Source: Flectonema sp. DT1601 (Eukaryota). From it: 64,000 nucleotides of DNA. The stretch's first letter is position 1; each line of letters starts with the position of its first letter. Below the pieces are notes generated by a model. That model was not told the origin of the DNA. It worked only from the letters and a program-made list of their open reading frames with translations, and made no database searches. The position numbers and the translations under genes are program-made. Location: NCBI GenBank assembly GCA_964019425.1, contig OZ025792.1, forward strand, positions 1,364,001 to 1,428,000. The letters run 5' to 3'. Shown here piece by piece: positions 10,501-56,114 of the stretch.

Positions 10501-13088
10501 ATTAGTTTATCGTTTTTAAATAACACAGAATTAACATTACCATCTGTAGGACTGTACATCACAGACTCACTTGATGGTTTTGTTCCATTTTGTGATGGTG
10601 GTGGTGGTGGTGGTGGTGGAGGTGCACATCCCAGAACAGGTATCACACTCTGAATTGGTTGTTCTATTTGTACGGTTTCTGCTCCTTTCGCGACTACCAG
10701 TATTGCATTTTCAGTTTTTTTAGCCTGATGCCAACCTTCAAAATCACTAATAGGATGACCATCGACAGAAACTACTACGTCGCCAGCAGCGAAGTGATTT
10801 ATTGCATTGTTTTCTCCCTGGAGGACTTCAGTGATGACTACCTTTTCGTCTCTTAGTATTATTGACTTTACGATATCTGTTTTTGAGTTGTATTGAAGTT
10901 CAATGATTTCCTGCTGTTCTGATAAGTCGCAAAGACCATGTCCTCGACCGATTGTTATATCGGATGAGTGTTTTGGATTGAGTGATTGAGTTGTGTTAGT
11001 CTTTTGACTTTCCCAGGTGTCAATAGTTACTGGGTTTCCATTAATTAAAAGAACTTTATCTCCCTGAAGTAGTTGACTGATGTTATTAGATTCTGTAACC
11101 TCAGCTATGAACAACCCGCGATCATCACATGCAACTGAGACGACTTGATCTGTTGATGACAATGGAAGTGACATTCTTATTTCATTTCTTGAAATCTCAA
11201 TTGTGGATGAAAAAGATGATCTCGTTGATAAAGTAGATTGCAGTAGAGTCTCTTGTTTGTTTACAGCAGCAGTCCAATCATTTACAGTAAGAATTCTCTC
11301 TCCTCCAGCAGATAATATCTTATCACCGGGCAAGACAGCTGATCCGACGGACTCTAACACTAAAATATCTTCTATTTCCGCTACCTCCACATGTTTAGCA
11401 TCGTGTGGACTGAGCATTACTTGCATCTTAACCCCGTTCCTCATTAGATGAATAGTAATCGACACGGGTTCGAACTTGTGAGAATTCCAAGTTTTTAAAT
11501 TGGTCAACAACTTTCCATTCACCGAGTAGATAACATCTCCCGGATGAAGTTTACAAGATTGTTCATAATAAGGAGATGAGTAGTTTACGGATGTTACGAT
11601 GGTCCGACCATTGGCAAACCCGAGGCTTTGAATAATACAATTAGACTCTAAGAAGAAATCAGACATAACCTTTTCCTTTTCTTGATTAACAACAATGGAA
11701 CCTGATGTTGATGATCTGCTAACAATCGGTGGAGGATTCAACTCATCATATCGTTCTTGCCATTCGTGAGGGTGCAGACACTCATAAAGTGAACATTCAT
11801 CAGCAACAGTAACATGTTCATCATTAAAGTTATACCATTCTCTATCTTTACCCTTTACCGATAGATCTCTAATGTAAGCAATGTAGTGTCCTCCTGAAGT
11901 AGTTCCCCTGTGAGCTAGTACAGAGAATAACTCGTATGTGTGATGAGAGAGAAATGGCCAAACTGAACGAAGAAGATCAGCAGTTATACTTTTACAACCA
12001 GCTGCAACTAAGAACAACTGTCTTTTATCAGAAGGGATATATTTACCGTTGTAAGAATCTGTTAGGAAGGGGGATAGGTTTATCTCTTCCTGGATGTCTA
12101 CGTCGTCGTAAACCTTTTCTCGACGAAGAGTTTCAAAGTCGAAATCAAACCTACGAAGCTGAACAGTTAAAATAGGAGGCAACTTTTTCAGACTCAAACC
12201 CTTCAGTGAGGGTTGTTTACTACTACACTCATCGCAGTTAATTTCATTGTCTCCTTCCATACATTCTGCTTCGACGAATTTCTCTAATGCTTCCTGTACG
12301 CTAGAAGTGTTCTTAACGGCTAACGTAATGTCTTGAAAAGTGTCAACTCGTTCTCTCCTTGCGCCGCAGGTTTTGCATTTTATGTAGTCGCCAAGCTCAC
12401 CTTCGAAGTAGTCAATAAGAAATGAATTCCCCTTTAAGTGATCAATGTATTTCTGTAATGCTTCAAAGAGTACTCGATTTAGTTCTTGAACGTCGTGTTG
12501 AGCAAAGTGTTGGCTTGACGTCCATCGAAAAGATTTCGTTAATCCCTTCGTGTCAACAGCTGATTTCTTACCGTCACGAAGACGTGCAAATAAAGATTGT
12601 AGTTGGTAAGGGACATTTAATTCAGTTCTCATTTCTTCTGGAATTTCCCATGTTAGTAATTGTTCTCTGAAGTCGGCTGATAAGAACAATGTCTGCAATA
12701 GTGAATTCATATAACAAGTAGCACCTTGGTTGAGTAATCCTGTGAATGATTCTTTCACAGCAATTTTGTTTTTTAATTTCTGTCGTTTGAGATACGTTTC
12801 TGGTGGAGCAACACCACCAGAAATCCCTTCGGTTGACATTCTTCTGTTACCCCGTTTTATACTTGGTTCTGCTATGTCGTTTGTTTCGCTAACGTCGAGG
12901 ATGAAACCTACGTTCTTCTTATTCTTCTTTCCATCATATTTGGTATCGCTACAAAACGAGCCTACTGTAACTTTTCCTTCTGTGACGGGAATAACTTGGC
13001 CATTGACAACAACACAAGCAGCTTCATGATCGTTTATTTCATGCAATGGAAGCATATGATCGCAATACGTGCAGGATACTTTATCCAT
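7566..13088 (-). CDS. USP-family deubiquitinase (USP7/40/47-like) with N-terminal Zn finger, PDZ-like insertion and C-terminal RING-H2
   Basis: Cys box GLLNQGATCYMNSLLQ, QHDVQE, His box HRGTTSGGHY, WYNFND. Six G-D-x-hydrophobic PDZ-like motifs. C-terminal CSIC..C.H..H..C..W..CPVC. Confidence 0.9.
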   Translation of the reverse strand: MDKVSCTYCDHMLPLHEINDHEAACVVVNGQVIPVTEGKVTVGSFCSDTKYDGKKNKKNVGFILDVSETNDIAEPSIKRGNRRMSTEGISGGVAPPETYLKRQKLKNKIAVKESFTGLLNQGATCYMNSLLQTLFLSADFREQLLTWEIPEEMRTELNVPYQLQSLFARLRDGKKSAVDTKGLTKSFRWTSSQHFAQHDVQELNRVLFEALQKYIDHLKGNSFLIDYFEGELGDYIKCKTCGARRERVDTFQDITLAVKNTSSVQEALEKFVEAECMEGDNEINCDECSSKQPSLKGLSLKKLPPILTVQLRRFDFDFETLRREKVYDDVDIQEEINLSPFLTDSYNGKYIPSDKRQLFLVAAGCKSITADLLRSVWPFLSHHTYELFSVLAHRGTTSGGHYIAYIRDLSVKGKDREWYNFNDEHVTVADECSLYECLHPHEWQERYDELNPPPIVSRSSTSGSIVVNQEKEKVMSDFFLESNCIIQSLGFANGRTIVTSVNYSSPYYEQSCKLHPGDVIYSVNGKLLTNLKTWNSHKFEPVSITIHLMRNGVKMQVMLSPHDAKHVEVAEIEDILVLESVGSAVLPGDKILSAGGERILTVNDWTAAVNKQETLLQSTLSTRSSFSSTIEISRNEIRMSLPLSSTDQVVSVACDDRGLFIAEVTESNNISQLLQGDKVLLINGNPVTIDTWESQKTNTTQSLNPKHSSDITIGRGHGLCDLSEQQEIIELQYNSKTDIVKSIILRDEKVVITEVLQGENNAINHFAAGDVVVSVDGHPISDFEGWHQAKKTENAILVVAKGAETVQIEQPIQSVIPVLGCAPPPPPPPPPSQNGTKPSSESVMYSPTDGNVNSVLFKNDKLIVSEICSVPETLNNKDTVLLLEGDVIYSADNIIMENIDMWSEIESSQKTGISMIVKRGDGLEELNQHKETLAKQEIISKNGETNIKPEGLDEIVLFAVDYSQIQLNDKCEVEKSTSASLESGDVIKFVNQISIKSDLEFRTLCGSEDTNGGMATVWVNRSKSDKASSPTAPADDDEGSSFFASIFDDLPAVMTPSSTTGIVQGKPVQSRLPTVTSRMYPYMIVYRLRSTCPLEHSSIPTSEGSIPEYLSKLVSSENEEFDQEISDYEAVKDLVEFKAYHNNTMKWCVCLRTDSIWDATVKAAAVFNIPTENATPSTLRIRHYLEASSVPGRSVLLGKEKPSDVPLEEVLGLGPLSAICVETRTEVDPEFKECAAADIKIFCSVYNPSSDTNSEEVGKPSMVIPATSTLQDLVTRVVIITDIPQSELYITIARGSDAHVLFEPNMSSINDLTEEKKIEIQSMLSAQVTNTHDICNLETIYVESAKHACNPEEESKKYGGVEQSCINSVNKIKNTKLCKADYWFPGNDDVEGLLYLPGLTKCSDLKEKIAAAHGIETSSFTMTCLPTKMARKGRSMEEPKKPLQAFVTNKHANVLLTASAASGGVNIDVYFIKQKPGKATWFYTSPGTAVETETEDFKKNICWDCTELKSAGITYSNCRYRKLDTRRQKTDCYLTGTVLSQWLQQSSPIVSGTSTISVVLEQGEIDEELTETSLFLWVQQFFPSERRYGDKKEIILNTDSRLYELVECMTEYTGGEGDPNNVPNERIRIIDKPLSNHFNRETTQAFHCGIQWNSVSQNSSTWMLKKCGYSQNDLVLFCDGSDLERAETDGPTEGNSGGGKRNLQLFLPSLKTTKSTEKGIVIKTEWDNDSPLEEPLTVAGPENKPDDVIYTNYSPAVVWSPEAHSTSCEDDELPQELEKQSRLYDTDLLEYQECSICLETYETEDIVIQLVCDHVLHTKCLCRWYKATGTCPVCKAELRP

Positions 13089-13556
13089 CTCTTGTGTACT
13101 GTGTGGCTGTTTGATGTAATGATATTTGTTAAATTCTTCTTCTTTTTTTTTTTTTTTTTTAACTCTTTTTTTATTACCAAAAAAAAAAAATTAATTATAT
13201 TTTTTTTTTTGGTAATAAAAAAATCAAAAAAAAAAGATCAGAGAAATCTCGCCATATTCGATTTTAAGAAAGAAAAAAAAAAATAAATATAAACACCGCA
13301 AATTGCAGCTGCTCCCCTTTAAAATGAAGCCAGTTAGGTCGCAACAAAACATACATGCGGCAGGTTGATATCGCTATTTACTATTTACCCCAATGAATTG
13401 AGTGACATCCAGAGGGGAAAAAAAAAAGAAAAGGGGGAAAGAAAAAAAAAAAAAGAAGAAAAAAACGTTAAAATAAAAATATTATTCATAAGAACTATAT
13501 AACAGTAAATATCATAAATCACTAACAGAGGTGGCTGTAGATGAATGTCAGGGTAG

Positions 13557-22366: not shown

Positions 22367-25300
22367 TTAAACAAATGACCTGCTGTTTCTGCTGTGAATT
22401 TGAGACATTGGAATTGCAGAAGTCATCGACTTTCGTCGAGGAGAAGAAGCATACTGAGAGCAGTAGAACTCACGAACAGCACTGTGATCATCAGTCATCA
22501 TACCGAGAGAGTGGTTTGCACTGTCATGACTTGGAGGAGAATAGTCTTCAGAAGACGAATCCATATCACCACAGGCGTCATCTTCGTTTGATGATACAGA
22601 CTGAGATAGTAAAGGTTTCCCCAAGTCAGTTGTTTCGTTTAGTGATTGACTTCCTTCGTATGGAGTCGCGTCTTTCCATTCACGGTGATTCTCAAGCATT
22701 GTTCTTCCACGTTCTGTACCTTGTTTACAGAATTCAGAATATGATCTGGGCTTACCACCATAGTCAAGACGTTTTTCAATCTCAGCTGCTTCCCATTCAA
22801 CAGTCCCACCGAACGTGTCAACGAATGCTTGTTTTACCTCATACTCATGAGTAGTTGGATGTCTTCTTCTTTCTTGATACTCTTGGTAGTCAAGCATATC
22901 GAATAGTTCTCTCTCACCAAATCCCCTGGCCTCCAAGACATCGAGAGCCTTCTTTTGAATCTTTCTTCTTCTTCCGACTTTCATGTCCCATATGAATGTT
23001 GCCAAGTCGTACAGCGCTTTGAACGCAATTAAGAATGTGACGGCAATTAGAATCCTGCCTCCATGACCGAATAAGTTTGTTCTGGTGGAGCTGGGTTGGA
23101 TTCCCATTGCTATAGATAAAAACAGCATTGCGACTACCATAAGAAGAGATATTAATATTTGGATGAAGTTTTCAAGTACTGACATAAACGGTCTGAATTT
23201 AACAACTGCTACCAAGTACATGAACAGTAAAAGTAAAATCAATGAATTACGAACATTACAGGCAGTTTGATCCGATGTCGTCCAAGCAGCAAAGAAAGAA
23301 AACAAAAGAAGATGGCCTATGTCAAGAAGGGGAAACCATTGGTAGCCATGTCGGTAAGATTCAAAAATTGCACCGAAATGCTCTACAAAACGACCATGGG
23401 TGGAAACCCATATAGACTTTCCGAAAACAAAAATATAAACCCTGCGGAAGAATGATCCCTTTTCGAGAAACCCTTCTTGGCGAGTTCCTATTTTTCGTTC
23501 GATAGCATCAACGGAATGATCGACTTCAAGTAAATTATGATCATAAAGCCTCGGATCAGGGATTGTTATAGCATCAAACCCACGCTGTTTAAGAACCGTC
23601 CACCACAATATGATTGGTGAGCAACACATAGAAATCATAAACACCCATCCCAAGACTGCACAATACGATGGAACGTTTTCATGATCCCATCCGAATGCCA
23701 TGTGTGCTGCCGATAGAGACATTCCGGGTAAGAGAAAAAAGAACGGCAGATATAACAGTCCAGGTGCACGGATGTTGCCCAGGGCTACTGTGAATTTTAT
23801 GTCCCACAACTGCATTTGAATGAAGCAGGCGAATAGTAAAACGAGACTGAAGAAGAATATTAAAAGTGGATCCCAAATGATTGCACCTAAAAAGTATCGT
23901 TGAGAATGAGTTCCTATTCCCATACCAACAGGGTGAAATTCCCAATCAAGTGGTTCTGACTCTCCCAAATCTAAGTCCTCAACTTTACAGTCGAGGTTAG
24001 CTAACATTCCTATTGGTCCCGCTTTTGTACCAGCTCCTGCTAATGCCACATCCAACACACTTTTTAATCCCGTATCTATTCCAGTTGGAAAGCATGTTGG
24101 AGCCTTGTCCATATTCCACTTCCCACCTGTTAAACACACTGCACTAGCGCAATCCATGCCCTTCTTCAAGATCTTACAGCTGCCAGCAAAAGCAACTTTC
24201 TCCCCCGTGGCACATCTTTCCCCTCGGACCATGAAGTCCTTCGTCCACGTTCCTAAATCATCAAATAAACATGGCAACTCAGCAACTGTAGTTGTTGGGG
24301 GTGTTGGTGTCGGAGGTGTTGGTGTGTTTGGAATATCAGTTTTGGGAACACTCGTCACAACTGCAGTCGGCACAGCAGTCGGTACTGTGGTCGGTACTGC
24401 GGTCGGTATGGCTGTAGGCAATGTAGTTGGTATCGAAGTTGGTGTGGCGGTAGGTGCATAAGTCTGGTGAGGAGGTAGCGGTGTAGGAGGAATTGGAATG
24501 GGTGTCGGTGGTGCATTAGTCGGGACAGTCGTTGGTACAGCCGTCGGGACAGCGGTCGGGATAGTTGTAGGAATTACTGTTGGTATGGCAGTCGGTCCGT
24601 AAGTCATAGCAGGAGGTAACGGAGTTGGAGGAATCGGAACCAGGGTAGGTACTGCAGTTGGAGCAACTGTTGGTATGGCGGTTGGCACAGCCGTTGGAAC
24701 TAATGTTGGCACCGCTGTCGGCACTGCGGTTGGCACCGCTGTTGGTACAGCAGTGGGAACGGCTGTTGGGACTGCGGTTGGGACCCCTGTCGGAACGGCT
24801 GTCGGGATAGAGGTCGGAATGGCAGTTGGCACAGCAGTGGGTATAGCAGTAGGTACAGCCGTAGGTACAGCCGTAGGTACAGCCGTAGGTACAGCCGTAG
24901 GCACAGCCGTGGGCACAGCCGTGGGCACAGCCGTGGGCACAGCAGTAGGTACAGCAGTAGGTACAGCCGTGGGCACAGCCGTAGGCACAGTAGTAGGTAC
25001 AGCAGTAGGTACAGCAGTAGGTACAGCCGTAGGCACAGCAGTAGGTACAGCGGTAGGAATGGCTGTTGGTACAGCAGTAGGGACTGCCGTCGGAACGGCA
25101 GTTGGTACCGCGGTCGGAATCGCAGTCGGCACCGCAGTCGGCACCGCAGTCGGCACCGCAGTCGGCACCGCAGTCGGCACCGCAGTCGGCACCGCAGTCG
25201 GCACCGCAGTCGGCACCGCAGTCGGCACCGCCGTCGGTGCAACAGTGGGGACAGCTGTTGGGACTGCAGTTGGAACCGCAGTCGGAACCGCAGTCGGAAC

Positions 25301-25930
25301 CGCAGTCGGAACTGCTGTTGGGATCGCTGTTGGGACTGCAGTCGGGATTGCCGTTGGTACTGCAGTTGGCGCATCTGTAGTCGGAACACAAGTGATAGTA
25401 GTCGTTGACCAACTACCACTCATACAAGTTGTGCTATCACAAGTACCAGTACCTGTATAAGAACATGTCGTACCTTCAGCAACACTACTTGTTGTACAAC
25501 TGCTGGTAGCACTTGCAGGAGCAGTGACGTCAGCAAGTACGCATCCTCTGAAATCCCAACACGAGTACCCTGCGGAGGCAATTATTCTATTAACAGGGTG
25601 AACACCTGCAGCTGCAGCAAAACCTGCCTCAAAATCACTCCAAGTATCAGTTGGTCCGGTTCCAATAGTGCCAGGAAACATTACTCCATAGTCAGTCTCT
25701 AAATAACATTGTCCGCTAGTAAAAGAAATCGATTTACAACCGTTGGTGTTGTAATCTTCACAGAGAGTCTTACAAGCAGCTAGTGTGGCCACATTATCTT
25801 TTACATAGTGAGGGCAGGTTGCAACTGTTGCTCCATTGCACTGGCAGATCCCATTTCCCATATCAACCCATGCCGTGCTCGATACTTTTGGTATCAAAGC
25901 AATAACGCATATCAGCCACCTCAGTAGCAT
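22367..25930 (-). CDS. Surface glycoprotein/receptor: signal peptide, PAN/apple-like Cys domain, (PTAV)n mucin-like stalk, multi-pass membrane domain
   Basis: ATG at 25930 (MLLRWLICVIALIPKVSS). CKTLC..CKSISF..CYL motif, long PTAV array, at least 7 hydrophobic segments in the C-terminal half, then a cytosolic tail. Confidence 0.85.
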   Translation of the reverse strand: MLLRWLICVIALIPKVSSTAWVDMGNGICQCNGATVATCPHYVKDNVATLAACKTLCEDYNTNGCKSISFTSGQCYLETDYGVMFPGTIGTGPTDTWSDFEAGFAAAAGVHPVNRIIASAGYSCWDFRGCVLADVTAPASATSSCTTSSVAEGTTCSYTGTGTCDSTTCMSGSWSTTTITCVPTTDAPTAVPTAIPTAVPTAIPTAVPTAVPTAVPTAVPTAVPTAVPTVAPTAVPTAVPTAVPTAVPTAVPTAVPTAVPTAVPTAVPTAIPTAVPTAVPTAVPTAVPTAIPTAVPTAVPTAVPTAVPTAVPTTVPTAVPTAVPTAVPTAVPTAVPTAVPTAVPTAVPTAVPTAVPTAVPTAIPTAVPTAIPTSIPTAVPTGVPTAVPTAVPTAVPTAVPTAVPTAVPTLVPTAVPTAIPTVAPTAVPTLVPIPPTPLPPAMTYGPTAIPTVIPTTIPTAVPTAVPTTVPTNAPPTPIPIPPTPLPPHQTYAPTATPTSIPTTLPTAIPTAVPTTVPTAVPTAVVTSVPKTDIPNTPTPPTPTPPTTTVAELPCLFDDLGTWTKDFMVRGERCATGEKVAFAGSCKILKKGMDCASAVCLTGGKWNMDKAPTCFPTGIDTGLKSVLDVALAGAGTKAGPIGMLANLDCKVEDLDLGESEPLDWEFHPVGMGIGTHSQRYFLGAIIWDPLLIFFFSLVLLFACFIQMQLWDIKFTVALGNIRAPGLLYLPFFFLLPGMSLSAAHMAFGWDHENVPSYCAVLGWVFMISMCCSPIILWWTVLKQRGFDAITIPDPRLYDHNLLEVDHSVDAIERKIGTRQEGFLEKGSFFRRVYIFVFGKSIWVSTHGRFVEHFGAIFESYRHGYQWFPLLDIGHLLLFSFFAAWTTSDQTACNVRNSLILLLLFMYLVAVVKFRPFMSVLENFIQILISLLMVVAMLFLSIAMGIQPSSTRTNLFGHGGRILIAVTFLIAFKALYDLATFIWDMKVGRRRKIQKKALDVLEARGFGERELFDMLDYQEYQERRRHPTTHEYEVKQAFVDTFGGTVEWEAAEIEKRLDYGGKPRSYSEFCKQGTERGRTMLENHREWKDATPYEGSQSLNETTDLGKPLLSQSVSSNEDDACGDMDSSSEDYSPPSHDSANHSLGMMTDDHSAVREFYCSQYASSPRRKSMTSAIPMSQIHSRNSRSFV
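24345..25380. repeat. Coding 12-bp minisatellite encoding (PTAV)n
   Basis: Units such as GGCACCGCAGTC, GGTACAGCCGTA and GGAACCGCAGTC on the + strand, repeated in tandem for about 1 kb with interruptions. Confidence 0.95.
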
Positions 25931-26338
25931 TTCTATTAGTCTGTTTGAAATGAATGGTAATAATCGTGGCTTATTATTATTATTATTGTCATTTGGGAAA
26001 CTGTTAAAAACAAGCTCCATGTCGGTCGGAGAAACCAAAAAAAAAAAAAAAGAGGGGGGAAAATTAAAAATTAAAACACCTTTTCACATAAATTAAAATA
26101 ATCAAAATTCGCATTATTTTCTTTTTTTTTGTTTACAAAAGATCGATGAGTGATTTTTTTTACTGTGCAGAGTGTAGTTGTAATTCAAAGAGTCGAAACT
26201 TTCTCTACTTTATATAAAAAAACACCGCAACAAACTACGATGGAGGAACTCAAGCCGTGAAATGAATCGGCTGTAAATAAATTTCTCCCTCTATTTTTTT
26301 ATTTTTTTCAATATTCGTTAATAAGGTACTCAATACTG

Positions 26339-33876: not shown

Positions 33877-36310
33877 TCACCATGCGGATAGTCTGGCAGG
33901 TACATCTTGATTAAGAGTAAGAAGAGGAGCAGAAGATGGATCTTTAACAGCCATCGAAATCTTTCCTCTTGAGATCAGAAGTACTCCTGCACCATTTTGA
34001 TGACCTCCATAATCAGAAGATGAGAATATCGTAATTACACGTCCAGAGTCTGATAGTCGAAGACCAGATGACTTCTCTTGATGAGCTCGGATGATGTAAT
34101 CGAAATTAAAGTTTGCGAGGAACGTATCAACGGCTTGTTTACCAAATGTTTTGATACCTGGACCACGAGGATTAGTACCAAAACCATGTTCGTTTAATAT
34201 CATTCCTGGCTCTGCTGGGTCTGACCAAAGTAAGTCAGACACAAACTGACGATATTCTCGTGTCTCTGCTTCAGGATTTGAAGATTGAACTTCTTCAAAT
34301 CTCGGAAAGTTCATCTTCTCAAGAATATCTAAACGAGAATCAGGTCCTCCATAGTATTGTGGTATTCCTCCGTGACTACAAAATATTTTATCATCAACAA
34401 TACAGGAAAGAGTTAAACAACTAAATAATCCATTAACCTGATTCCATACTTGTGTACCAATCTCTTCACCGAATACCATTAGACACTGATGTCTAAATGA
34501 AACCGTTCCGTATGTTGCAACATCACCATTAACTTCAGGACTTTCATGATTGCCTCTGAGTAGTGTTATTTTATGTGGTGATAACAACTTGTATGCCAAC
34601 AGGAAACAAATACATTCTACTGAACAGGTCCCTCTATCGACGTAATCTCCAAGAAACAGGAGGTCAGCAGCAGTGTAGTTGAGCTCACCAAAGGTGACGA
34701 TATTTTTCATAAAACAATAAAGATCTGCAAAGTTTCCGTGAATATCACCGAAAACATAAAGAGGAGATGAGAGTCGCTGTAGTAGGGGTTCTTTTTCAAG
34801 AACGGGACGAACCGCTCGGCAGAGAGCGAGGATCGCAGAACCGAATTCACGCGGACGATGATATCTAAATTCACGACCTCCATCAACAGCTGCTTCCATA
34901 ATCATATGAAGAACTGTTGTCGCTTCCATTGGTCGATGAGATCCATCTCTGGGAATGTCTGCTTCCAGATCCCGAACTCTCATAATTGTGGATTCTGTTC
35001 CTAAAAGGTCTTGTTCAGCTCCAGCATCTGCCGTAGCGAACGGATCAAATCCTGCCCTGGCACCCATTGGAGTGTCTGGTTCTACAGCAGTCGCTCTGTT
35101 GACAACTTCAGACATCATACAAACACCTTTTGGATCACCTTTCTCATCAATTAATAAAACCTGAGGGCAGAGGTCGGCTGTCGGGTTAAAAGTCGCACGG
35201 GTGCCAGTCTGTCCCCAAGTGGCTCCCTTTGGAGGAGGAGAGCGAGAGTGGGAGCGTGATCGAGAGCGGCTACGAGTGCGACCGGTGACGGGGGTGGCTT
35301 GTTGGCGATGATCGAGAGCCATTCCAGGAATGTTGTTACCACCCTGTTGCTGTAGTAGTACACCAGGTGGAGTTGGTGGAGACGGCGGAGTTAGAACGTG
35401 ACTTGCTGTGTTGACTTGTTGCACTGTTGTACCCAACTTTGGTGTAGTTGGCTGTCGTTGCTGTTGCTGATACAATCGATAATTATCCGGTATACCTGAT
35501 GCACTTATGGGTTGTTGCTGTTGATGCTGCTGTTGCTGCTGTTGCTGTTGCTGTTGTTGCTGCTGTTGTTGTTGCTGTTGCTGCTTCATGGCTGACCCTC
35601 TGTCTTTTTTCCGCAAGGCCGAAGGATCTTGCGGGATACTTTTTAATTCCGATTCAATAGTTTTCATTCTATTCTCAGTGTGATAAATGTCAGTAATTAG
35701 AGATGGTAATGTTGATTGATCTACTCCCTCATACCATCCTTTAACTTCATCTTGTGTGAATATTGAATTACTTACGCAGTCGATGCCGGTTGCTTCGCCT
35801 CTGTGAGAAACACCTTTTCCGAGATCGACGAAAATTCTCCATTCAGAGGTGACGCCGCGGATGCGACCGACTTTGTAGTGAGCTCTTCCATTGGGTGCGT
35901 CCTCGAGACGGAATCTGATATAAAACCCGACTACCAGACCAGGAAATCTGGAGTCCAATCGTTGATGCCAATCAAGTAATCTATCTCTTCCAACCCAAAC
36001 AGAATGGATATTTGGAATCCCTGTTGGATGTGCTGCTGGTTGTGAAACTACTCCCTTTGGATCGAATCGATAAACTGGAGCTGGTCTTTCTACAGCAGTC
36101 TCACCACTTAACTGTTTTATTAATTTATTGTAATAAAGTAGCTCAGCTAATAGCAATAACAGAAAAAGAAAGAAAATCCAAACAACATACCAAATTAACG
36201 TAATAAAAGACACCGTGTCTAGTAGTGCTCTGTCTAACTGCCCATCCTTCTGGAGGACGTGGGTCGAACTTTCGACATGCCTCAGCGTCTTGCTTTGAGA
36301 GGTTCGTCAT
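33877..36310 (-). CDS. WW-Plus3-polyQ/RS-PPP family Ser/Thr phosphatase; 2 exons (36310-36191, 36111-33877), 784 aa
   Basis: PPP motifs GDIHG, GDYVDRG, RGNHE, HGG, DLLWSDP, RAHQ. Splicing rebuilds WW-like PPEGWAVRQSTTRHGVFYYVNL|LSGETAVERP. Plus3-like GFYIRF..YKVGRIRGV..VSNSIFTQDEVKGW. Confidence 0.88.
35510..35585 (-). repeat. CAG/CAA trinucleotide tract (polyQ)
   Basis: Mixed TGC/TGT repeats on the + strand, translating to a long Gln run with one His on the minus strand. Confidence 0.9.
36112..36190 (-). other. GT-AG intron, 79 bp
   Basis: TTG|GTATGT ... TAATAAAACAG|TTA; the in-frame join completes a WW domain. Confidence 0.85.
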
Positions 36311-46781: not shown

Positions 46782-47780
46782 TTACATCTTAAGATCAGGA
46801 TCCCATGAGAAGAGTGGCGACTCCATTGCCTCATACATTGGTGAGGCTACGCACGTAGACGTTGTAAAGTAAGGAACCTCAATCGGATCCTCTTCATCAA
46901 CAAGTGGCGGCATGTCGTCCTCCTCAACTGGTGGTGTCGACGACGGTGAAATATTCGATGATGAAGACGGAGAAACTGAAATACTATCATCAGACATTGG
47001 CATTGAAGTCGCTACTAACTTGAGTCCTGAATTCTTGGATACAAAGTCTCTGCAAACATGCAAGTTCGGACAGGACCTTCCAAACTTACATCTGCTGTTA
47101 ACGTGAGGAGTGCACAACTGATGGCTGTTTGATTCTGAACCAGCAGTCTGAGCTATCTTATCGTGAGGGACTTTAATTCCACAAAGAGTAATATCTTTTG
47201 TGTATCCACGATCTCCATGACTACCACAACATGGAGTACGAAGTCTGTACTCATCAAGATCACGAAGTTCACTGTGCTTAACGTGAATGTATTCACAGTT
47301 ACGGTCATCAGGACAGACACCAGTCTTTCCAAGTCCTGGGTTGTACATTCTGCACAAGTTGATTGGAGCAATTCTACCAGAACGAGCGTTACGCTTCGCC
47401 TTGTCGAGAGCTCTAGTACGTAAAACAGCAGTAAATCTAACGGCAAAGACTCTGTTTGTTGTGGTGTTACGGACTACTACTTCTCTCATGAAGTTGTCCT
47501 CTACCTCCACACAGTTCTTCTTACGCATCATAGCGACGAAATCTTTGTTTACGTGGAATGATTTGCACTTGCTGCTTTGTCCACATCTTCCTTTCAAATA
47601 CAATCCACACAGGCAGGCTCTGTGACTCGACTTCTTTTCTCCTCCCAACATTGCGTTGTAGTGATCATCGAATCCGACGGTTCTCTCAATCTGAGAAAGT
47701 GGTACTTCGTATGACATGTGAGTCTTTGCGAAAGGGTCTTTAATTATCATTGTTTGGATCATGTTGTTGTGGGTGTGCAT
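46782..47780 (-). CDS. CCCH zinc-finger (RNA-binding) protein, three fingers
   Basis: CGLYLKGRCGQSSKCKSFH, CRMY..CPDDRNCEYIH, CTPHVNSRCKFGRSCPNLH; PEST-like tail. Confidence 0.85.
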   Translation of the reverse strand: MHTHNNMIQTMIIKDPFAKTHMSYEVPLSQIERTVGFDDHYNAMLGGEKKSSHRACLCGLYLKGRCGQSSKCKSFHVNKDFVAMMRKKNCVEVEDNFMREVVVRNTTTNRVFAVRFTAVLRTRALDKAKRNARSGRIAPINLCRMYNPGLGKTGVCPDDRNCEYIHVKHSELRDLDEYRLRTPCCGSHGDRGYTKDITLCGIKVPHDKIAQTAGSESNSHQLCTPHVNSRCKFGRSCPNLHVCRDFVSKNSGLKLVATSMPMSDDSISVSPSSSSNISPSSTPPVEEDDMPPLVDEEDPIEVPYFTTSTCVASPMYEAMESPLFSWDPDLKM

Positions 47781-49619: not shown

Positions 49620-51390
49620 TCATGCGAGATCAAGAAGCATTTTGCTTGGAGTCTCAAGGTATGATTTCCACACGTTCGAAAACCTAACCATAGTGGCACC
49701 GTCAATAACACGGTGATCGGCTGTCCAGGAGATGTAAAGGATGTTCTGGCTTTCAATTTCACCGTTTGCGTCGTATTTTGGGATCTTAACAACCTTACCC
49801 AGGGCTCCAATTGCTACCTGTGGAGGCATAATAATTGGAGATACGTATGTTCCACCAATAGATCCAATGTTTGATAAGGTAAAGGTACCTCCCTGAAGGT
49901 CAGAAGGTGTTAATGTGTTGGTCATTCCACGTTCTTGAAGACCAGCAAGTTCCTGAGATATTTCAAAAATAGTTTTCTGTTCAACATTCTTAATATTTGG
50001 AACAACAAGACCCTGCGCAGTGTCCATTGCGACACCAATGTTGTGTGCTCCCTTGTAAGTCAGTTCAGTGACATCAGAGTTTAAGGTACTGTTAACGACT
50101 GGGTATTCCTTCAATGCGAATGAAGCAGCCTTGATGAAGAACGGCATGTAACTCAACTTCGCTCCACGCTTCTCAACAACTGGTTTCAACATGGCTCTTA
50201 CTCTCACAAGCTCATTCAAGTTAATCTCATCGGCCGCTCCAAATGATGGAATCTTTAGGGACTCTGTCATCGACTGGACCATAACCTTAGTACGTCCCTG
50301 TTGTTGTTTTGTTAATGTGATGATTCACTTGAAGAGTAACACTCTTTATAAAGTAACTATCGCATACCATAATCTTTTCCATTCTGTCTTCTGGAGTGTA
50401 CTTCACAGCAGTTGACGCTGGAGCACTGCTGGACGATGTCTTTGCAGCAGCAACAGGAGTGGCAACACCCTCCATGAAGCTGTTGTTATGTTAGTTTTTA
50501 TTGTCATATTTTGAATTAGCAGTAAATAATACAAACAAATAATAAACATACTTAATAATGTCTTCCTTAGTAACACGTCCTCCCTTTCCAGTGGCAGGTA
50601 CCTGAGTAAGGTCAACCTTTTTTTCTGCAGCAATACGACGAACAGCAGGGGTAGCAAGTACCTTTTTACCGGCAGCAGATTGCGTGTAGAGACCACCTGA
50701 AGAGGAAGTTGATTTAGCAGCGACTGGGGCAGTAGTGGAAGCGGAAGAGCTGGAAGCTGGTGCCGAGGTGGTTGGAGCTGGGGTGGAACCTCCCTCAGTT
50801 GTGATCTGACAAATCGGTCCACCAACAGCAAGAGCTTCTCCAACCACTGCGGTGATGTTTTTAACAGTTCCTGAGAATGGAGATGGGATCTCAGCAGTAG
50901 CCTTGTCTGACTGAATTTCAATTAAGTTGTCGCCCTCAGACACAACATCTCCTTCCTTAGCAAAAACCTGAAGGACTTCAACTTCTTTGATGCCTTCAGC
51001 GATTTCCACCATGGCTACGGTCTCGAGAGCACCCCCAGAAGTTGAAGTCGCTGGTGCCGCTGAGACGGGTTCTGGTGTCGCTGATTCCTCACCTTCGACG
51101 TCGATATCAACAAGACCAGAACCTACCTGCTGCATGTCACCTACGTCAGTGTATATTTTTGTAATCTTACCAGTATATTTTGATGTAATTTCAGCCATTG
51201 CCTTGTCTGACTGAATCTCACACAACTTCTGAAATTCCTCAACAACATCTCCTTCTTTGACAAACCAATTCAGTACTTCAACTTCTTTAATACCTTCACC
51301 GATATCAGCCATCGGGAACGTAACAATTTCTAAGTTGGTAGCCGTCCTGCTAAAAAAGCGAGGCTGGATTTTGAGTACCCTGCGGAACAT
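49620..51390 (-). CDS. DBT: Dihydrolipoamide acyltransferase E2 of BCKDH (DBT) type with two lipoyl domains; 3 exons (51390-50552, 50479-50368, 50297-49620), 542 aa
   Basis: Presequence-like MFRRVLKIQPRFFSR. Two EGIKEVEV..IQSDKA lipoyl domains, E3-binding ATPAVRRIA..TGKGGRVTKED, and catalytic GTFTLSNIGSIGG and WTADHRVIDGATM. Exon lengths sum to 1629 nt, in frame. Confidence 0.92.
50298..50367 (-). other. GT-AG intron, 70 bp
   Basis: ATG|GTATGC ... TTAACAAAACAACAACAG|GGA; joins KIM-GRTKVMVQSM. Confidence 0.9.
50480..50551 (-). other. GT-AG intron, 72 bp
   Basis: AA|GTATGT ... ACTAACATAACAACAG|C with branch-like CTAAC; joins EDII-N-FMEGV. Confidence 0.9.
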
Positions 51391-52067
51391 TGTTTTATTA
51401 TTTACTACTGGAGGGGGACTATAAATAGATTTCAGGTGAAATACGAATTGTGATGATATTCCACAGTAGTTATGACATTAGTGATGTGACTCAGAACATT
51501 AAATGTGTTAGTAGCTGTGATGTGTAATATATGTCAGAGGATATCATTTGACTAATAAAGTAACAGTTCTCAGTCGCGTAAACTGTTTTTTTAAATCGAA
51601 TTCCGAACGTGAAGAGAAAATACGACTTCTGGGGAAGGAGAGACAGGGGCTCAACAGGAATGGGGGGGGGCAGAGACAACACACTTGTCCATTTTTTTTT
51701 AAATTTTTTTTTCATCCTTTTTTTTTTCCTTTTATGTATTGAACGTTTCCATCGTTTTGCTTCATTTCAATAATCAGAGAGAAACAAGAAAAAGGAGAAC
51801 CAGGGATGGTGAAAAAGTTAACAATGTAAAGCCTACTAACGGGGTGAAACTTTGACAATGTAAAAACAGTAACAACTTTAGGTATTAACATAAAACCAAT
51901 ATCAAGTACCAAAGCATAGTAAAGGGGGCGGGGGGGGAAAAAAATGAAAATCTTTATTACATACATGTATGAAACTCAAAAGCTTTTTTATATTCATTCC
52001 AGCGGAAAAAGCTCACGAATGAAAATCTTGTTTTGTTGAATACAATATTACTTTAAATTTACCAAAT

Positions 52068-52102
<35 letters not shown>

Positions 52103-52642
52103 GGCCATAAGAAAAGATTTTGATCGCAGAATAATTTAAATTTTCATATTTTAGTCAGTTTTGGGAGCAATTAATTTTTTTCATTTTTTTTTTTTTTTCT
52201 CTTTACCAGTTCCTAGGGATACTATTTTAAGAAGTTTTTACTCAAAAGAATGATACTTGAGAGGGAAAGAAGAAAAAAATAAGAGAAAAAAAATTGCACA
52301 GAAGAAAAATGTGAAAACAAACACCACAACGTCAAAGGAAAAGAACTAAAAGAAGAAATCCGACAAGTCGGAGTAGATAAAAGTGTGAAAGGGATGAATT
52401 GGGAAGCACTTGTTTATTCGTTTTTTTGTTTTTGTTTTTTTAAATTAATTCGAAATAACGATTCATCCCGAGAAGATTCCTTAATCTAAAAATCAACAAC
52501 AGGAACCACAACTACAGGTGTTTTGGTCACCAGAGCAAGTAGAAGGATATTCCTCGTGTCACCTGACTTGTTAAAAAACAGAACTAAGAAAACTCCACAG
52601 TGAATAAAATCGTTCATTGTCGTACTCTCTCGACTGACAATG

Positions 52643-52675
<33 letters not shown>

Positions 52676-53012
52676 CCGCAGTCGGAAACGTTTATAAATA
52701 ACCTTGTTGAACCCCTTCATTCACGCACCTAAAATAAAGGAGAGAAAAGTAAGCGCAAATAAAAAAGCTTTGCTAAGGGGATTGGGAGGGGCACATGTAT
52801 AATTTCTTAAGGGGAAAGAGGGAGGAGGTGGTTTTAAAGTACAGAAGATTTAAACGAGGCAAAGCTCAATTAATCTTTTTTCAGTTTTTTTTTTCCATTT
52901 ACTCCACAGCCACGATAGTGCCCGCGATTCAACGTGACTTTGTGGCACTCCCGTTTATTGGTTCTATTCTTTTTCTGCTAATTTTTTGTGTTGCGTCATT
53001 TCGTCCTATTAT

Positions 53013-56000
53013 TTAAATAGCACAAATGTCAGCACGTAGACCAGTCTCAAGGTTGTATCCCTTAATTGCAGCATCAGCAGTTGCTGAGTCAACGAGACCC
53101 TTGCGGCTGAGTTGAGCGAGTGTAGTGGCAACAATGGACTCGGTGTCCACTTCGAAGAATCGACGAAGGTGAGCTCTGGTGTCAGATCTTCCAAATCCAT
53201 CAGTTCCAAGAACGGTGTAGTCTCCTGGAACAGCTGCTCTGATAGTGTCGGGAAGAGCTTTCTGGAAGTCGCTGGCAGCGATGGTCAATTCAGGTCCACC
53301 TTCGAATTGTTCAGTCACAAAGGATTTTACTTCTGGTTCAGTTGGGTTGAGTCGACTAGTTCTAAGAGCAGCATTCATATCATTATGAAGTTCACCATAA
53401 GAAGTAACTGACCAAATATCACTCGAAATGTTGTATTGCTCATCAAGGATTGCTGCTGCGTCCTGGACCTGCTTCATGATCGAACCAGAACCGAGAAGAC
53501 GAACCTTAAGATCATGTTCTCCAACAGTTTTGAATTTATACATTCCCTTTGCAATTCCAGCGCGAACTCTGTCGAGATCTTCCTCTGGGAGTGCAGGCAT
53601 CGCTACATCCTCGTTGTAGAGCATGACGTAGTAAATTACATCCTTGTCTTCTCCCCACATCTCCTGAATACCATTCTCTAGAATGATGCTCACTTCATAG
53701 GCGAATGCCGGGTCAAAAGCACGGCAAGCAGGGTTACTCATAGCAATAAGAAGAGAGTGACCATCCTGATGTTGAAGACCCTCACCGTTAAGTGTGGTAC
53801 GACCAGCTGTAGCTCCCAACAAGAACCCACGTGCACGAGCATCGGCACCCTGCCAGATAAAGTCACCAACACGCTGGAATCCAAACATCGAATAAAAGAT
53901 GAAGAATGGAAGAGTAGGACATCCCTGTGAGGAGTATGATGTACCCGCTGCAATCCAGGTACACAGAGCTCCAGCCTCTGAAATACCTTCCTGAAGGAGC
54001 TGACCATCAGGAGCTTCCTTGTAGGTCAACAATGCACCAGCATCAACAGGTGTGTACGACTGTCCGAATGGTGCGTGAATCTTAAATTCAGGGAAGAATC
54101 CTTCAAGACCAAATGTACGAGATTCATCAGTAATAATTGGAACAACACGCTTTCCAAAGTGCTTGACCTTCATGAGGGAGCGAAGTACTTCTCCAAAGGC
54201 GATGGTAGTTGAGACAAGTCTTCCCTTTGATCCAGCATATAATTTATTGTATACTTCAGGACCTGGTATCTTTACGATAGAGCTGATTTCAACTGGAGAA
54301 CGTAATGGGAGGTATCCACCAAGAGCTTCACGACGCTCTTGCATATATTTTACTTCTTCAGATTCCGCACCAGGATGGCAGAAAACTTGTTTGTCAACGT
54401 TGCTGATTTGTTCATCAGTAAGTGGAATGTTGAGGGTGTCACGGAAGTCCTGCATAGCGGAATCGTCGATGTTCTTCATCTGGTGAACAGGGTTTCTTCC
54501 AACAAAGGTTTTGATGCTGTGACCCTTTAGAGTCTTTGCTAAGATAACTGTTGGACGGGCTCCCTCTTCAGCGTTTCTCTCCGCCTGTAGAAGGGCATTG
54601 TAGATCTTTTTTTTGTCGTGACCACCTGGGTTCATAAACGCCTCGAGAAGTTCCTCATCAGAAAGGTGAGAAACGCGTTCCAACAATTCTCCACGGAAGA
54701 TTTCCTTACGAATAAGTGCTCCGTCCATTTTTGCGGCAAGTCGCTGACAGTCACCGTCAGGGTGGGACTCGAGCGCGTCAACAAGCTTTCCGTCATTGTC
54801 AGCTTCAACCAACTTGTTCCAGGCGTCTCCCCAAACTAATTTGATGCAATCGAATCCAGCACCTCTGAACAAACCTTCAAACTCCTGAATAACTTTACTG
54901 TTTCCTCTGACAGGTCCATCAAGACGCTGGTAGTTACAGTTCACAATAAAGATCATGTTGTTAAGTCTTTCTCTACCAGCAACAGCAATGGCAGAGATTG
55001 TCTCAGACTCGTCCATTTCACCGTCACCGACGAATGCCCAAACTCTGCTCTTCGATGTGTCAGCCAACTCTCTCAGGTGGAGGTATCTGAAGTAACGAGC
55101 CTGGTGAACGGCCTGAAGTGGACCGATACCCATGGAAACAGTTGGGTTCTCCCAAAAGTTAGGCATCAGTCTAGGGTGAGGGTATGATGAAAGACCTTCT
55201 CCGGCCTGACACTCCATTCTGAAGTTTAAGAGTTGATCACAAGAAAGTCTGCCTTCCAAAAAGGCACGCGCGTAGGCACCAGGAGATGCGTGACCCTGAA
55301 TGTAGATGCTGTCTCCCTCTCCGCCGCCATATCCCTTTCCTCTGAGGAAGTGATTTTGGAGAACTTCCCAAATGTCAGCAACAGATGCGAATGTACCGAT
55401 GTGACCACCCAAACCAGCATTACGCTTGTTAGCGTCGGAAACCATAACAGCAGCGTTCCATCTAACCATGCTGCTAATTCTTGATTCAATATCGAGATCA
55501 CCTGGGTATTCACTCTCATTCTCACTTGAGATAGTGTTTTGAAATGGAGAAATTACAGGCTGACGAATAGGAACTTCAAGCTTCTGCGCTTCCTTCAATA
55601 AGTCATGTAATAAGAATCTTGCTCTTGAAGCTCCGTGGTGGTTGACAACAGCCTCGAGTGACTCAAACCATTCTGCGGTCTCATCGATGTCGAATTTTGG
55701 GGACGCTGGTTTGATGTTTCTCATTGCGGAAGGCATGATGTTACGATGTCCTCCACCGATATCAATTGAGGATGAGAATTTAGGCATCTCACCTCTCAGA
55801 GAACTCATGAACTCATCGTAACCAATATCACCACTATTGTCGCGGTCGAAGTAATCAAATAGTTCTCCTACCTCCTCGTCAGAGGTCTCAATTCCCATCT
55901 TCTTTAATAGGGAGCTGAACTCATCAAATTCCAAGGTTTTTGCTCCATCGCTTGCTGCAGTTCCAAACCATTCGGTCTTCATGGCAACCATTCCCTTTCC

Positions 56001-56114
56001 CATTGTTTTCTGTCTCTCAGAGACAACTTGTTGTATTCTACGAAGACACTCTGGCTCTGCGACTGCCTTTCTAAACATTCGCTGGCCCGACACAGCCTTC
56101 AGCCCTCTCAACAT
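53013..56114 (-). CDS. aceE: Homodimeric (prokaryote-type) pyruvate dehydrogenase E1 with N-terminal presequence and EF-hand pair
   Basis: GGHIGTFAS, QGHASPG, GLSSYPHPRLMP, TVSMGIGP, TPP motif GDGEMDE..NCNYQRLDG, DESRTFG, EGLQHQDG, LGTDGFGRSDTR. EF loop DRDNSGDIGYDE at aa 90-101. Intronless. Confidence 0.95.
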   Translation of the reverse strand: MLRGLKAVSGQRMFRKAVAEPECLRRIQQVVSERQKTMGKGMVAMKTEWFGTAASDGAKTLEFDEFSSLLKKMGIETSDEEVGELFDYFDRDNSGDIGYDEFMSSLRGEMPKFSSSIDIGGGHRNIMPSAMRNIKPASPKFDIDETAEWFESLEAVVNHHGASRARFLLHDLLKEAQKLEVPIRQPVISPFQNTISSENESEYPGDLDIESRISSMVRWNAAVMVSDANKRNAGLGGHIGTFASVADIWEVLQNHFLRGKGYGGGEGDSIYIQGHASPGAYARAFLEGRLSCDQLLNFRMECQAGEGLSSYPHPRLMPNFWENPTVSMGIGPLQAVHQARYFRYLHLRELADTSKSRVWAFVGDGEMDESETISAIAVAGRERLNNMIFIVNCNYQRLDGPVRGNSKVIQEFEGLFRGAGFDCIKLVWGDAWNKLVEADNDGKLVDALESHPDGDCQRLAAKMDGALIRKEIFRGELLERVSHLSDEELLEAFMNPGGHDKKKIYNALLQAERNAEEGARPTVILAKTLKGHSIKTFVGRNPVHQMKNIDDSAMQDFRDTLNIPLTDEQISNVDKQVFCHPGAESEEVKYMQERREALGGYLPLRSPVEISSIVKIPGPEVYNKLYAGSKGRLVSTTIAFGEVLRSLMKVKHFGKRVVPIITDESRTFGLEGFFPEFKIHAPFGQSYTPVDAGALLTYKEAPDGQLLQEGISEAGALCTWIAAGTSYSSQGCPTLPFFIFYSMFGFQRVGDFIWQGADARARGFLLGATAGRTTLNGEGLQHQDGHSLLIAMSNPACRAFDPAFAYEVSIILENGIQEMWGEDKDVIYYVMLYNEDVAMPALPEEDLDRVRAGIAKGMYKFKTVGEHDLKVRLLGSGSIMKQVQDAAAILDEQYNISSDIWSVTSYGELHNDMNAALRTSRLNPTEPEVKSFVTEQFEGGPELTIAASDFQKALPDTIRAAVPGDYTVLGTDGFGRSDTRAHLRRFFEVDTESIVATTLAQLSRKGLVDSATADAAIKGYNLETGLRADICAI

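Follow-up and report, generated by a model that had tools for sequence, protein, structure and literature searches.

An AceE-type pyruvate dehydrogenase E1 of likely archaeal origin and its probable branched-chain E2 partner in the diplonemid Flectonema sp. DT1601

Analysis of a 64,000-nucleotide stretch of the Flectonema sp. DT1601 genome (contig OZ025792.1; hereafter the window, to whose positions all coordinates refer) suggests that this organism has a pyruvate dehydrogenase (PDH) assembled from two sources. We consider it probable that AceE, an E1 of likely archaeal origin and likely mitochondrial, docks on the host's branched-chain acyltransferase (DBT, the E2 of BCKDH), with one E2 core serving both pyruvate and branched-chain keto acids. 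The literature has yet to settle how two groups of protists abundant in the ocean make acetyl-CoA from pyruvate without a normal PDH. That AceE borrows an E2 has already been suggested: for Diplonema (Paradiplonema) papillatum, the published account (Zahonova et al. 2023, as summarized in PMC12699882) proposes it and leaves the partner open between the E2s of BCKDH and OGDH, and what the initial annotation of this DNA says of diplonemid AceE matches that summary. What is added here is an EF-hand pair on AceE and interface-level evidence on the partner, which narrows the question to AceE residues 141-180 and the E3-binding domain (PSBD) of DBT. The side-by-side position of the two genes is the least important part of the finding.

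The aceE gene occupies positions 53013..56114 (minus strand, as do all features below) as a single intronless open frame of 1,033 aa. Its product scored 1146 bits against the TIGR00759 aceE profile (cut-off 859.9) and stayed below the cut-off of TIGR03186. At 17 of 19 E. coli AceE reference positions the residue was the same, among them the catalytic histidines, conserved glutamates and the thiamine-binding motif; the exceptions were positions 598 (Phe for Tyr) and 401 (a gap). The catalytic residues were invariant or nearly so across 73 AceE sequences, and the predicted structure of the Flectonema neradi orthologue matched PDB 4QOY. Judged by its sequence, AceE is an intact homodimeric-type PDH E1, and the conserved residues predict decarboxylation of pyruvate with thiamine diphosphate. 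Bacterial contamination was ruled out by the introns of the neighboring gene, eukaryotic genes on both sides and a third-position GC content of 0.415, versus 0.30-0.40 for six other window genes. The source organism is a diplonemid close to F. neradi.

The first 19-22 residues of both AceE and the E2 are basic and nearly acid-free, in agreement with the presequence-like N-termini noted in the initial annotation; in AceE, residues 1-19 (56058..56114) are entirely acid-free and would act in targeting. For the D. papillatum orthologues of AceE and the E2, a published table gives mitochondrial scores of 0.84 and 0.90, and AceE of the present diplonemid is likely mitochondrial as well. AceE could nevertheless have a side role, with the main route to acetyl-CoA running through BCKDH with its own E1-alpha/beta or through pyruvate oxidoreductase. 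Toxoplasma BCKDH works mainly as a PDH (PMC4102578), and for D. papillatum two E1-alpha and two E1-beta isoforms are listed in addition to pyruvate oxidoreductase. However, full-length AceE was kept in all eight named diplonemids seen as well as in named dinoflagellates, and both the near-invariance of the catalytic residues and the score above the aceE cut-off make such a side role very unlikely in our judgment.

Eukaryotic AceE sequences grouped in a single clade (support 1.0), with Marine Group II archaea as their sister group (0.998 under wider bacterial sampling); all trees reported here are FastTree trees with local supports. The tree indicates that AceE was likely acquired from marine archaea, as is consistent with the initial proposal of a horizontally acquired E1 working with a host E2. 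In these archaea (Poseidoniales), each of the 81 genomes searched had exactly one E2 catalytic domain and 57 had aceE above the cut-off, counts that refer to incomplete assemblies and to a search with a loose first pass. Where aceE and the E2 gene shared a contig, they were 0.9 and 1.1 Mb apart (genomes G008 and G032), and none of 25 archaeal aceE loci had an E2 gene within the flank available. In all five genomes examined, the E2 gene instead came after an E1-alpha gene, within ∼2.5 kb; the one E1-alpha typed scored 415 bits against a solved BCKDH E1-alpha versus 190 against the best PDH-labelled E1-alpha. Since the archaeal E2 and the DBT studied here are only 29-30% identical in the catalytic domain, the archaeal precedent is one of role, not of sequence. 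A possible reason why the swap could work is that the archaeal sister group seems to offer AceE no E2 other than a BCKDH-linked one.

The E2 gene consists of exon 1 (50552..51390; presequence-like start, two lipoyl domains and most of the PSBD), exon 2 (50368..50479; the end of the PSBD and a linker) and exon 3 (49620..50297; the catalytic domain), separated by GT-AG introns of 72 nt (50480..50551) and 70 nt (50298..50367). The spliced model of 542 aa had no internal stop and was 83% identical across its full length to an F. neradi transcript protein. Besides the lipoyl domains, it comprises one E3-binding domain, or PSBD (50557..50661, its last helix running on into exon 2; Pfam E3_binding, 59.2 bits), and one catalytic domain with a His-Asp motif. 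Both members of the pair first described as an intronless prokaryote-type aceE beside an intron-containing E2 gene are therefore real. The catalytic domain scored 289 bits against the BCKDH E2 structure 2IHW and at most 152 against any other solved E2 (DBT 289 versus AceF 119, DLAT 97 and DLST 134). It fell within the eukaryotic DBTs in a tree without DLAT or eukaryotic DLST sequences and was only 31-34% identical to AceFs, which formed a separate clade; it is thus no AceF-type acetyltransferase. On structure matches and tree, the E2 belongs to the eukaryotic branched-chain (DBT) clade, which upholds the original assignment of the catalytic core; both motifs quoted for that assignment sit in exon 3. 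Its placement as a host DBT also led us to reject co-transfer of the E2 with aceE, and the aceE-aceF-like gene order suggested earlier is not inherited, given this placement and the archaeal loci.

The textbook DBT has one lipoyl domain. We considered the presence of two as a mark of AceE partnership and rejected it, since two-lipoyl DBTs also occur in Leptomonas, a fungus and other eukaryotes. Lipoyl domain 1 (51097..51330) is DBT-typical, with 85-97% identity to domain 1 of F. neradi, D. japonicum and D. papillatum. Lipoyl domain 2 (50794..51027) retains the lipoyl lysine and is strongly diverged both here and in F. neradi, with 50% identity to domain 1 of the same protein and 44-49% to domain 2 of D. 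japonicum and D. papillatum. A lipoyl-domain tree drew domain 2 toward AceF on a long branch. This pull is likely an artefact: DBT motifs of diplonemids are retained in the domain, and among single domains BCKDH remained its top match (50 bits, versus 43 for an AceF domain).

AceE likely works with this neighboring BCKDH-type E2. A helical hairpin of AceE (residues 141-180; 55575..55694) aligned gaplessly with residues 9-50 of E. coli AceE, matching the N-terminal segment by which the latter binds the PSBD of its E2 (PMC10849603). Two helices were present at this place in the predicted F. neradi structure, and mean column conservation was 0.74, compared with 0.77 for the AceE core. On the E2 side, the curated mitochondrial table of D. 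papillatum lists nothing for PDH E1 alpha or beta; it gives one BCKDH E2 (two lipoyl domains and an E3-binding domain), one OGDH E2 and one E3. By eye, we saw no PSBD motif in the D. papillatum OGDH E2, and eukaryotic OGDH E2s are reported to lack this domain (PMC9974300). We thus favor the BCKDH E2, both because AceE retains the docking hairpin while only this E2 has the domain docked on, and because the Poseidoniales genomes searched have just one E2 each, encoded within a BCKDH-type operon wherever its surroundings were examined. Dinoflagellates are likewise reported to be without DLAT while retaining BCKDH and aceE (PMC3879968, PMC4102578).

The other option left by the published view (PMC12699882) is that AceE uses the OGDH E2 (DLST), solely or additionally, with the neighboring DBT serving branched-chain acids only. 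Sharing of this kind has a parallel in actinobacteria, where one E2 serves both AceE and the oxoglutarate enzyme (PMC10415282). We nevertheless regard DLST as quite unlikely to be the partner: a hairpin conserved nearly like the core would have no PSBD to bind on a eukaryotic DLST, the single archaeal E2 is linked to a BCKDH operon in the genomes examined for this, and the DBT lipoyl lysines lie in the D-K-A context also seen in E. coli AceF, unlike those of the D. papillatum DLST. A separate canonical DLAT or bacterial AceF elsewhere in the genome as the true partner appears highly improbable, since the entries examined of the mitochondrial table list none for D. papillatum and no second diplonemid-labelled E2 type was found among the best 120 matches of each E2 search, ranked by likeness to the DBT studied here.

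Ahead of the docking hairpin, by ∼30 residues, AceE carries an EF-hand pair (residues 54-108; 55791..55955; Pfam EF-hand_7, 34.7 bits, cut-off 30). This pair is absent from the initial annotation, and the sections of PMC12699882 that describe D. papillatum AceE do not mention it. The defining pattern, two helix-loop-helix units whose 12-residue loops place ligands at positions 1, 3, 5, 9 and 12, is present in AceE: loop 2 (residues 90-101) is canonical, loop 1 is without the position-1 aspartate in this species, and the predicted F. neradi structure has a helix-loop-helix pair in this region. Of 82 eukaryote-type AceE sequences, from diplonemids and dinoflagellates, 73 had the pair, as against none of 39 prokaryotic ones, a distribution that points to one fusion event having put it on AceE. 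Among the 73, loop 2 kept D1 in 67, G6 in 63 and E12 in 62, and loop 1 kept D1 in 57 and E12 in 62. With these ligands, the pair is likely to bind calcium, and we give about an even chance to the idea that matrix calcium tunes AceE docking or activity through it. As a conserved regulatory domain, the pair suggests that a core enzyme gained by horizontal transfer is controlled directly by calcium. In D. papillatum, a genetically tractable species with orthologues of both genes, loop 2 is degenerate.

The two genes are separated by 1,622 A/T-tract-rich bases (51391..53012) with no sense-strand frame longer than 91 codons. Both lie on the minus strand as originally stated; this co-direction is uninformative, however, since all 21 gene-like frames in the window share that strand. 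Diplonemid genes are arranged in one-strand arrays of up to 120 genes, likely co-transcribed and then cut into single mRNAs. Of the relatives, only D. papillatum allowed a test of conserved linkage, and the synteny expected from the initial annotation was not seen there: the orthologues of aceE and the E2 gene are on separate contigs (262,245 and 80,502 bases), and the next gene downstream has its best match on a third (59,744 bases). The best ENA matches of this downstream gene lay on four contigs differing in length from the two aceE-bearing contigs. Gene-number neighbors in D. papillatum were mostly hypothetical proteins, with contig ends not shown; a split at contig ends could explain the separation for at most ∼19% of adjacencies. 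Among the best 120 matches of the E2 search, there were no fragments of other diplonemid assemblies (proteins of 395-489 aa or below 123 aa lay outside the search). Metagenome contigs gave one 1-kb fragment without context. Among sequencing runs, no RNA data set was listed as carrying the sequence; a single contig set of low depth, possibly the source data, had short pieces identical to it, none of which bridged the two genes.

We therefore asked how much weight the adjacency can bear. The linkage itself might be functional, a selected E1-E2 gene pair held together in diplonemids: the pair was a published candidate beforehand, the probability of lying beside any of two or three named candidates by chance is ∼1 to 8 in 10,000, which argues against pure accident, and lipoyl domain 2 has diverged in the Flectonema lineage. 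However, chance alone would yield 0.06 to 1.3 neighboring pairs of interacting partners genome-wide, depending on the numbers assumed, the gap exceeds most others in the window, and the strand and contig data above count against selection as well. We regard functional linkage as unlikely. Given the one-strand genes, the separate D. papillatum contigs and the lack of an E2 neighbor in the archaeal sister group, adjacency is weak evidence, and the arrangement is most likely lineage-limited and not needed by the complex. The initial annotation, which read the linkage as pointing to the borrowed partner, was likely right about a BCKDH-type E2, although the linkage is not what supports the pairing.

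In the mechanism that we propose for AceE and DBT, both proteins would be imported into the mitochondrion, where an AceE dimer would decarboxylate pyruvate with thiamine diphosphate, as its conserved residues suggest. By analogy to E. coli, the AceE hairpin would compete with BCKDH E1-alpha/beta and the common E3 for binding to the DBT PSBD. AceE would then acetylate a lipoyl arm, speculatively the diverged second one, and the DBT core would hand the acetyl group to CoA. The EF-hand pair may, with the even chance given above, let matrix calcium adjust docking or activity. A broader and tentative scenario, possible though not probable, is that a single transfer between eukaryotes gave diplonemids and dinoflagellates a common hybrid PDH gated by calcium. 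An archaeal AceE already borrowing a branched-chain E2 would have been given the EF-hand pair once, beside the docking hairpin; matrix calcium would pick the pyruvate or the branched-chain E1 on the single shared E2 core, so that PDH would again be under calcium control, now without a kinase-phosphatase switch; and, within the Flectonema lineage, lipoyl arm 2 would have specialized for AceE and the genes become linked.

Among the closest known systems is that of D. papillatum, with an orthologous AceE (DIPPA_31725; 69% identical), an orthologous two-lipoyl BCKDH E2 (DIPPA_02535) and hypothesized E2 borrowing; it differs in that the genes are on different contigs there and adjacent here, and in the choice between BCKDH and OGDH left in print (PMC12699882). 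With the E. coli PDH complex (AceE, AceF, Lpd; PDB 4QOY), the Flectonema system shares a homodimeric E1, active-site residues, the N-terminal PSBD-binding segment and an aceE upstream of an E2 gene. In contrast to E. coli, the E2 here is a eukaryotic DBT with introns whose catalytic domain shares 33% identity with AceF, there is no operon and no adjoining E3 gene, and the E1 adds a presequence-like start and the EF-hand pair. Poseidoniales resemble it in having a solo aceE without its own E2, the single E2 being tied to a BCKDH-type E1 where examined, in an E1-alpha, E1-beta, E2, E3 operon; from gene content, we infer that their AceE shares this E2. They differ in having one lipoyl domain, an E2 of 29-30% identity, unlinked genes and no EF-hand in the sequences examined. 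The eukaryotic BCKDH E2 (DBT; PDB 2IHW) falls in the same clade as the E2 described here, and Toxoplasma BCKDH illustrates that a DBT core can handle acetyl groups, although there BCKDH's own E1 acts on pyruvate, where here a foreign homodimeric E1 would. Finally, the actinobacterial PDH/ODH supercomplex (AceE, AceF/DlaT, OdhA, Lpd) likewise serves two E1 activities with one lipoylated E2; there, the shared E2 is the PDH E2 and the second activity is on oxoglutarate rather than on branched-chain substrates.

Both genes that the initial annotation had put forward as a hybrid pyruvate dehydrogenase (PDH) pair are real. aceE (positions 53013-56114, minus strand) is a single frame of 1,033 amino acids, whose product scores above the TIGR00759 cut-off. 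The E2 gene, which starts 1,622 bases downstream, is interrupted by two short GT-AG introns, and its spliced product of 542 amino acids carries two lipoyl domains, one peripheral subunit-binding domain (PSBD) plus a catalytic domain. The latter scored 289 bits against the solved E2 of branched-chain ketoacid dehydrogenase (BCKDH) and at most 152 bits against every other solved E2. In a tree of 55 rows, built without DLAT and without eukaryotic DLST rows, it fell into a diplonemid clade (0.994) within the eukaryotic DBTs, far from AceF and archaeal E2. Since Flectonema neradi is the closest named relative of both AceE (91% identical) and E2 (83%), the window is diplonemid nuclear DNA. The idea of a hybrid PDH is already in print (Zahonova et al. 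2023, as summarised in PMC12699882), as is a dinoflagellate AceE (PMC3879968), and PDH function is left open in PMC8611851.

The linkage of the two genes, from which the pairing had been argued, turned out to be the weaker part of the case. The window's 21 gene-like frames all lie on the same strand and the gene arrays of Diplonema papillatum are described as one-stranded over up to 120 genes (PMC10161547), so that co-direction is uninformative. Adjacency of aceE to any of two or three named candidates would arise by chance with a probability of about 1 to 8 in 10,000, but, on assumed numbers, chance alone should yield roughly 0.06 to 1.3 neighbouring pairs of interacting partners in a genome. 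In D. papillatum, the one relative compared, aceE lies on a 262,245-base contig and E2 on an 80,502-base contig, a separation that could, less probably, reflect a contig break falling between them; the best match there to the gene downstream of E2, among 10 of 116 matches looked up in a family with paralogues, is on a 59,744-base contig. We thus regard the adjacency as a suggestive pointer to partnership that is not conserved in D. papillatum and without which the argument stands, the linkage giving weak support to a hybrid PDH, and better support coming from domain content and from the archaeal sister group.

That downstream gene (46782-47780, minus strand) has no Pfam match and belongs to a cysteine/histidine-rich family with 24 clusters within an E-value limit of 1e-30; every named member looked up comes from a diplonemid. 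Elsewhere on the minus strand, a 1,840-amino-acid single frame (7566-13190) combines a ubiquitin hydrolase with PDZ-like repeats and, at its C-terminus, a RING finger, one frame (33877-36306) joins a Plus-3 domain to a calcineurin-like phosphatase through a glutamine-rich stretch, and a membrane protein (22367-26083) has an extended Pro-Thr-Ala-Val tandem repeat, its TRP-channel-like match being weak.

Domain content is more telling about the partner. E. coli AceE is reported to bind the PSBD via its first ∼58 residues (PMC10849603); the PSBD-binding segment, a docking hairpin, is retained at residues 141 to 180 of the window AceE and is nearly as conserved as the core across 73 eukaryote-type sequences. 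Eukaryotic OGDH E2 is described as lacking a PSBD (PMC9974300), and inspection by eye of the available D. papillatum OGDH E2 revealed none. A single BCKDH E2, with two lipoyl domains and a PSBD, is listed for D. papillatum (PMC12699882 supplement 2), and dinoflagellates are reported to lack DLAT and to retain aceE and BCKDH (PMC3879968, PMC4102578). Together, these observations favour DBT as the predicted partner of AceE. Although PDH E1-alpha is absent, the D. papillatum list also contains at least six PDH-kinase-like proteins, and both BCKDH E1-alpha and E1-beta appear in it as two isoforms.

The first reading had overlooked an EF-hand pair at AceE residues 54 to 108, about 30 residues ahead of the docking hairpin. 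Among 121 aligned rows it was present in 73 of 82 eukaryote-type and in 0 of 39 prokaryote-type AceE; among the named carriers are eight diplonemids and members of four dinoflagellate genera, the remaining rows being assigned from their rank and length and, in part of them, from the tree. The nine eukaryote-type rows without the pair are N-terminally short, partial or apparently chimeric. One transcriptome row (P0080) starts with a cold-shock-like domain where the EF-hand region is expected, possibly an assembly chimera. Ligand positions are conserved and intervening positions variable, a pattern that selection for calcium binding would give, marking a putative Ca2+ site; degeneration affects the second loop in D. 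papillatum, and the window AceE has an imperfect first loop. In a model of F. neradi AceE (mean pLDDT 82.9), the pair is predicted to fold as a unit on a low-confidence linker. Mammalian PDH is activated by calcium via its phosphatase; AceE is not known to carry the kinase sites found in E1-alpha. Because the fusion is in the same register in diplonemids and dinoflagellates, it points to one event plus transfer between these eukaryotes; each is a separate clade in the trees, which would fit a transfer in either direction. Among the titles and abstracts listed on calcium or EF-hands in AceE or E1, none described an EF-hand AceE, and the EF-hand passages of PMC12699882 and PMC3879968 concern other proteins; at the title and abstract level, the conserved fusion is apparently undescribed.

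AceE of diplonemids and dinoflagellates formed a single clade (1.0), whose sister was Marine Group II archaea, in FastTree trees of 46 and 43 rows, their prokaryotes having been picked for resemblance either to the query or to an archaeal AceE. This position is consistent with the label "archaeal type" in PMC12699882. The aceE orthogroup OG0012779 (PMC10161547 supplement file 5) also lists two members under "Ehux" (presumably Emiliania huxleyi), which represent a third eukaryote group or contamination. In a flank search that recovered aceF at the E. coli locus, none of 25 archaeal sister-group aceE loci had an E2 in its flanks (6 kb at most, in some cases less); among 50 bacterial loci, 9 had an E2 on the other strand. 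Exactly one E2 catalytic domain was found in each of 81 Poseidoniales genomes, all incomplete assemblies, 57 of which have aceE over the cut-off and five more strong partial matches. The E2 follows an E1-alpha gene (5/5 Marine Group II genomes examined) and has an E3 motif inside its 1.5-kb flank (35/35 E2 loci); the one archaeal E1-alpha typed is closest to the solved BCKDH E1-alpha. With AceE alone and a single E2 in a BCKDH-type setting, we infer that the AceE lineage may already have been borrowing a BCKDH-operon E2 before its entry into eukaryotes. Titles and abstracts on AceE or E1 with Poseidoniales contained no mention of such E2 sharing. All five Marine Group II genomes (G001-G005) also carry a solo frame of about 950 to 980 amino acids with an E1_dh match; at one archaeal locus (L088:316-3186, minus strand) it resembles a fused E1-alpha/beta extended N-terminally by a cysteine-rich segment; as a third E1, it would need to share the single E2.

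The two lipoyl domains are not special in number, since Leptomonas, a fungus and other eukaryotes also have two-lipoyl DBTs. What stands out is their asymmetry: domain 1 is 85 to 97% identical to its counterpart in three other diplonemids. Domain 2 (50794-51027, minus strand) has diverged sharply in Flectonema sp. DT1601 and F. neradi only, down to 50% identity with its own domain 1; from domain 1 to domain 2, the score drops from 85 to 50 bits against a BCKDH lipoyl structure and climbs from 31 to 43 bits against an AceF lipoyl domain. Two lipoyl arms with divided labour would be a lead only. For an E2 serving two E1 activities, actinobacteria provide a reported precedent (PMC10415282).
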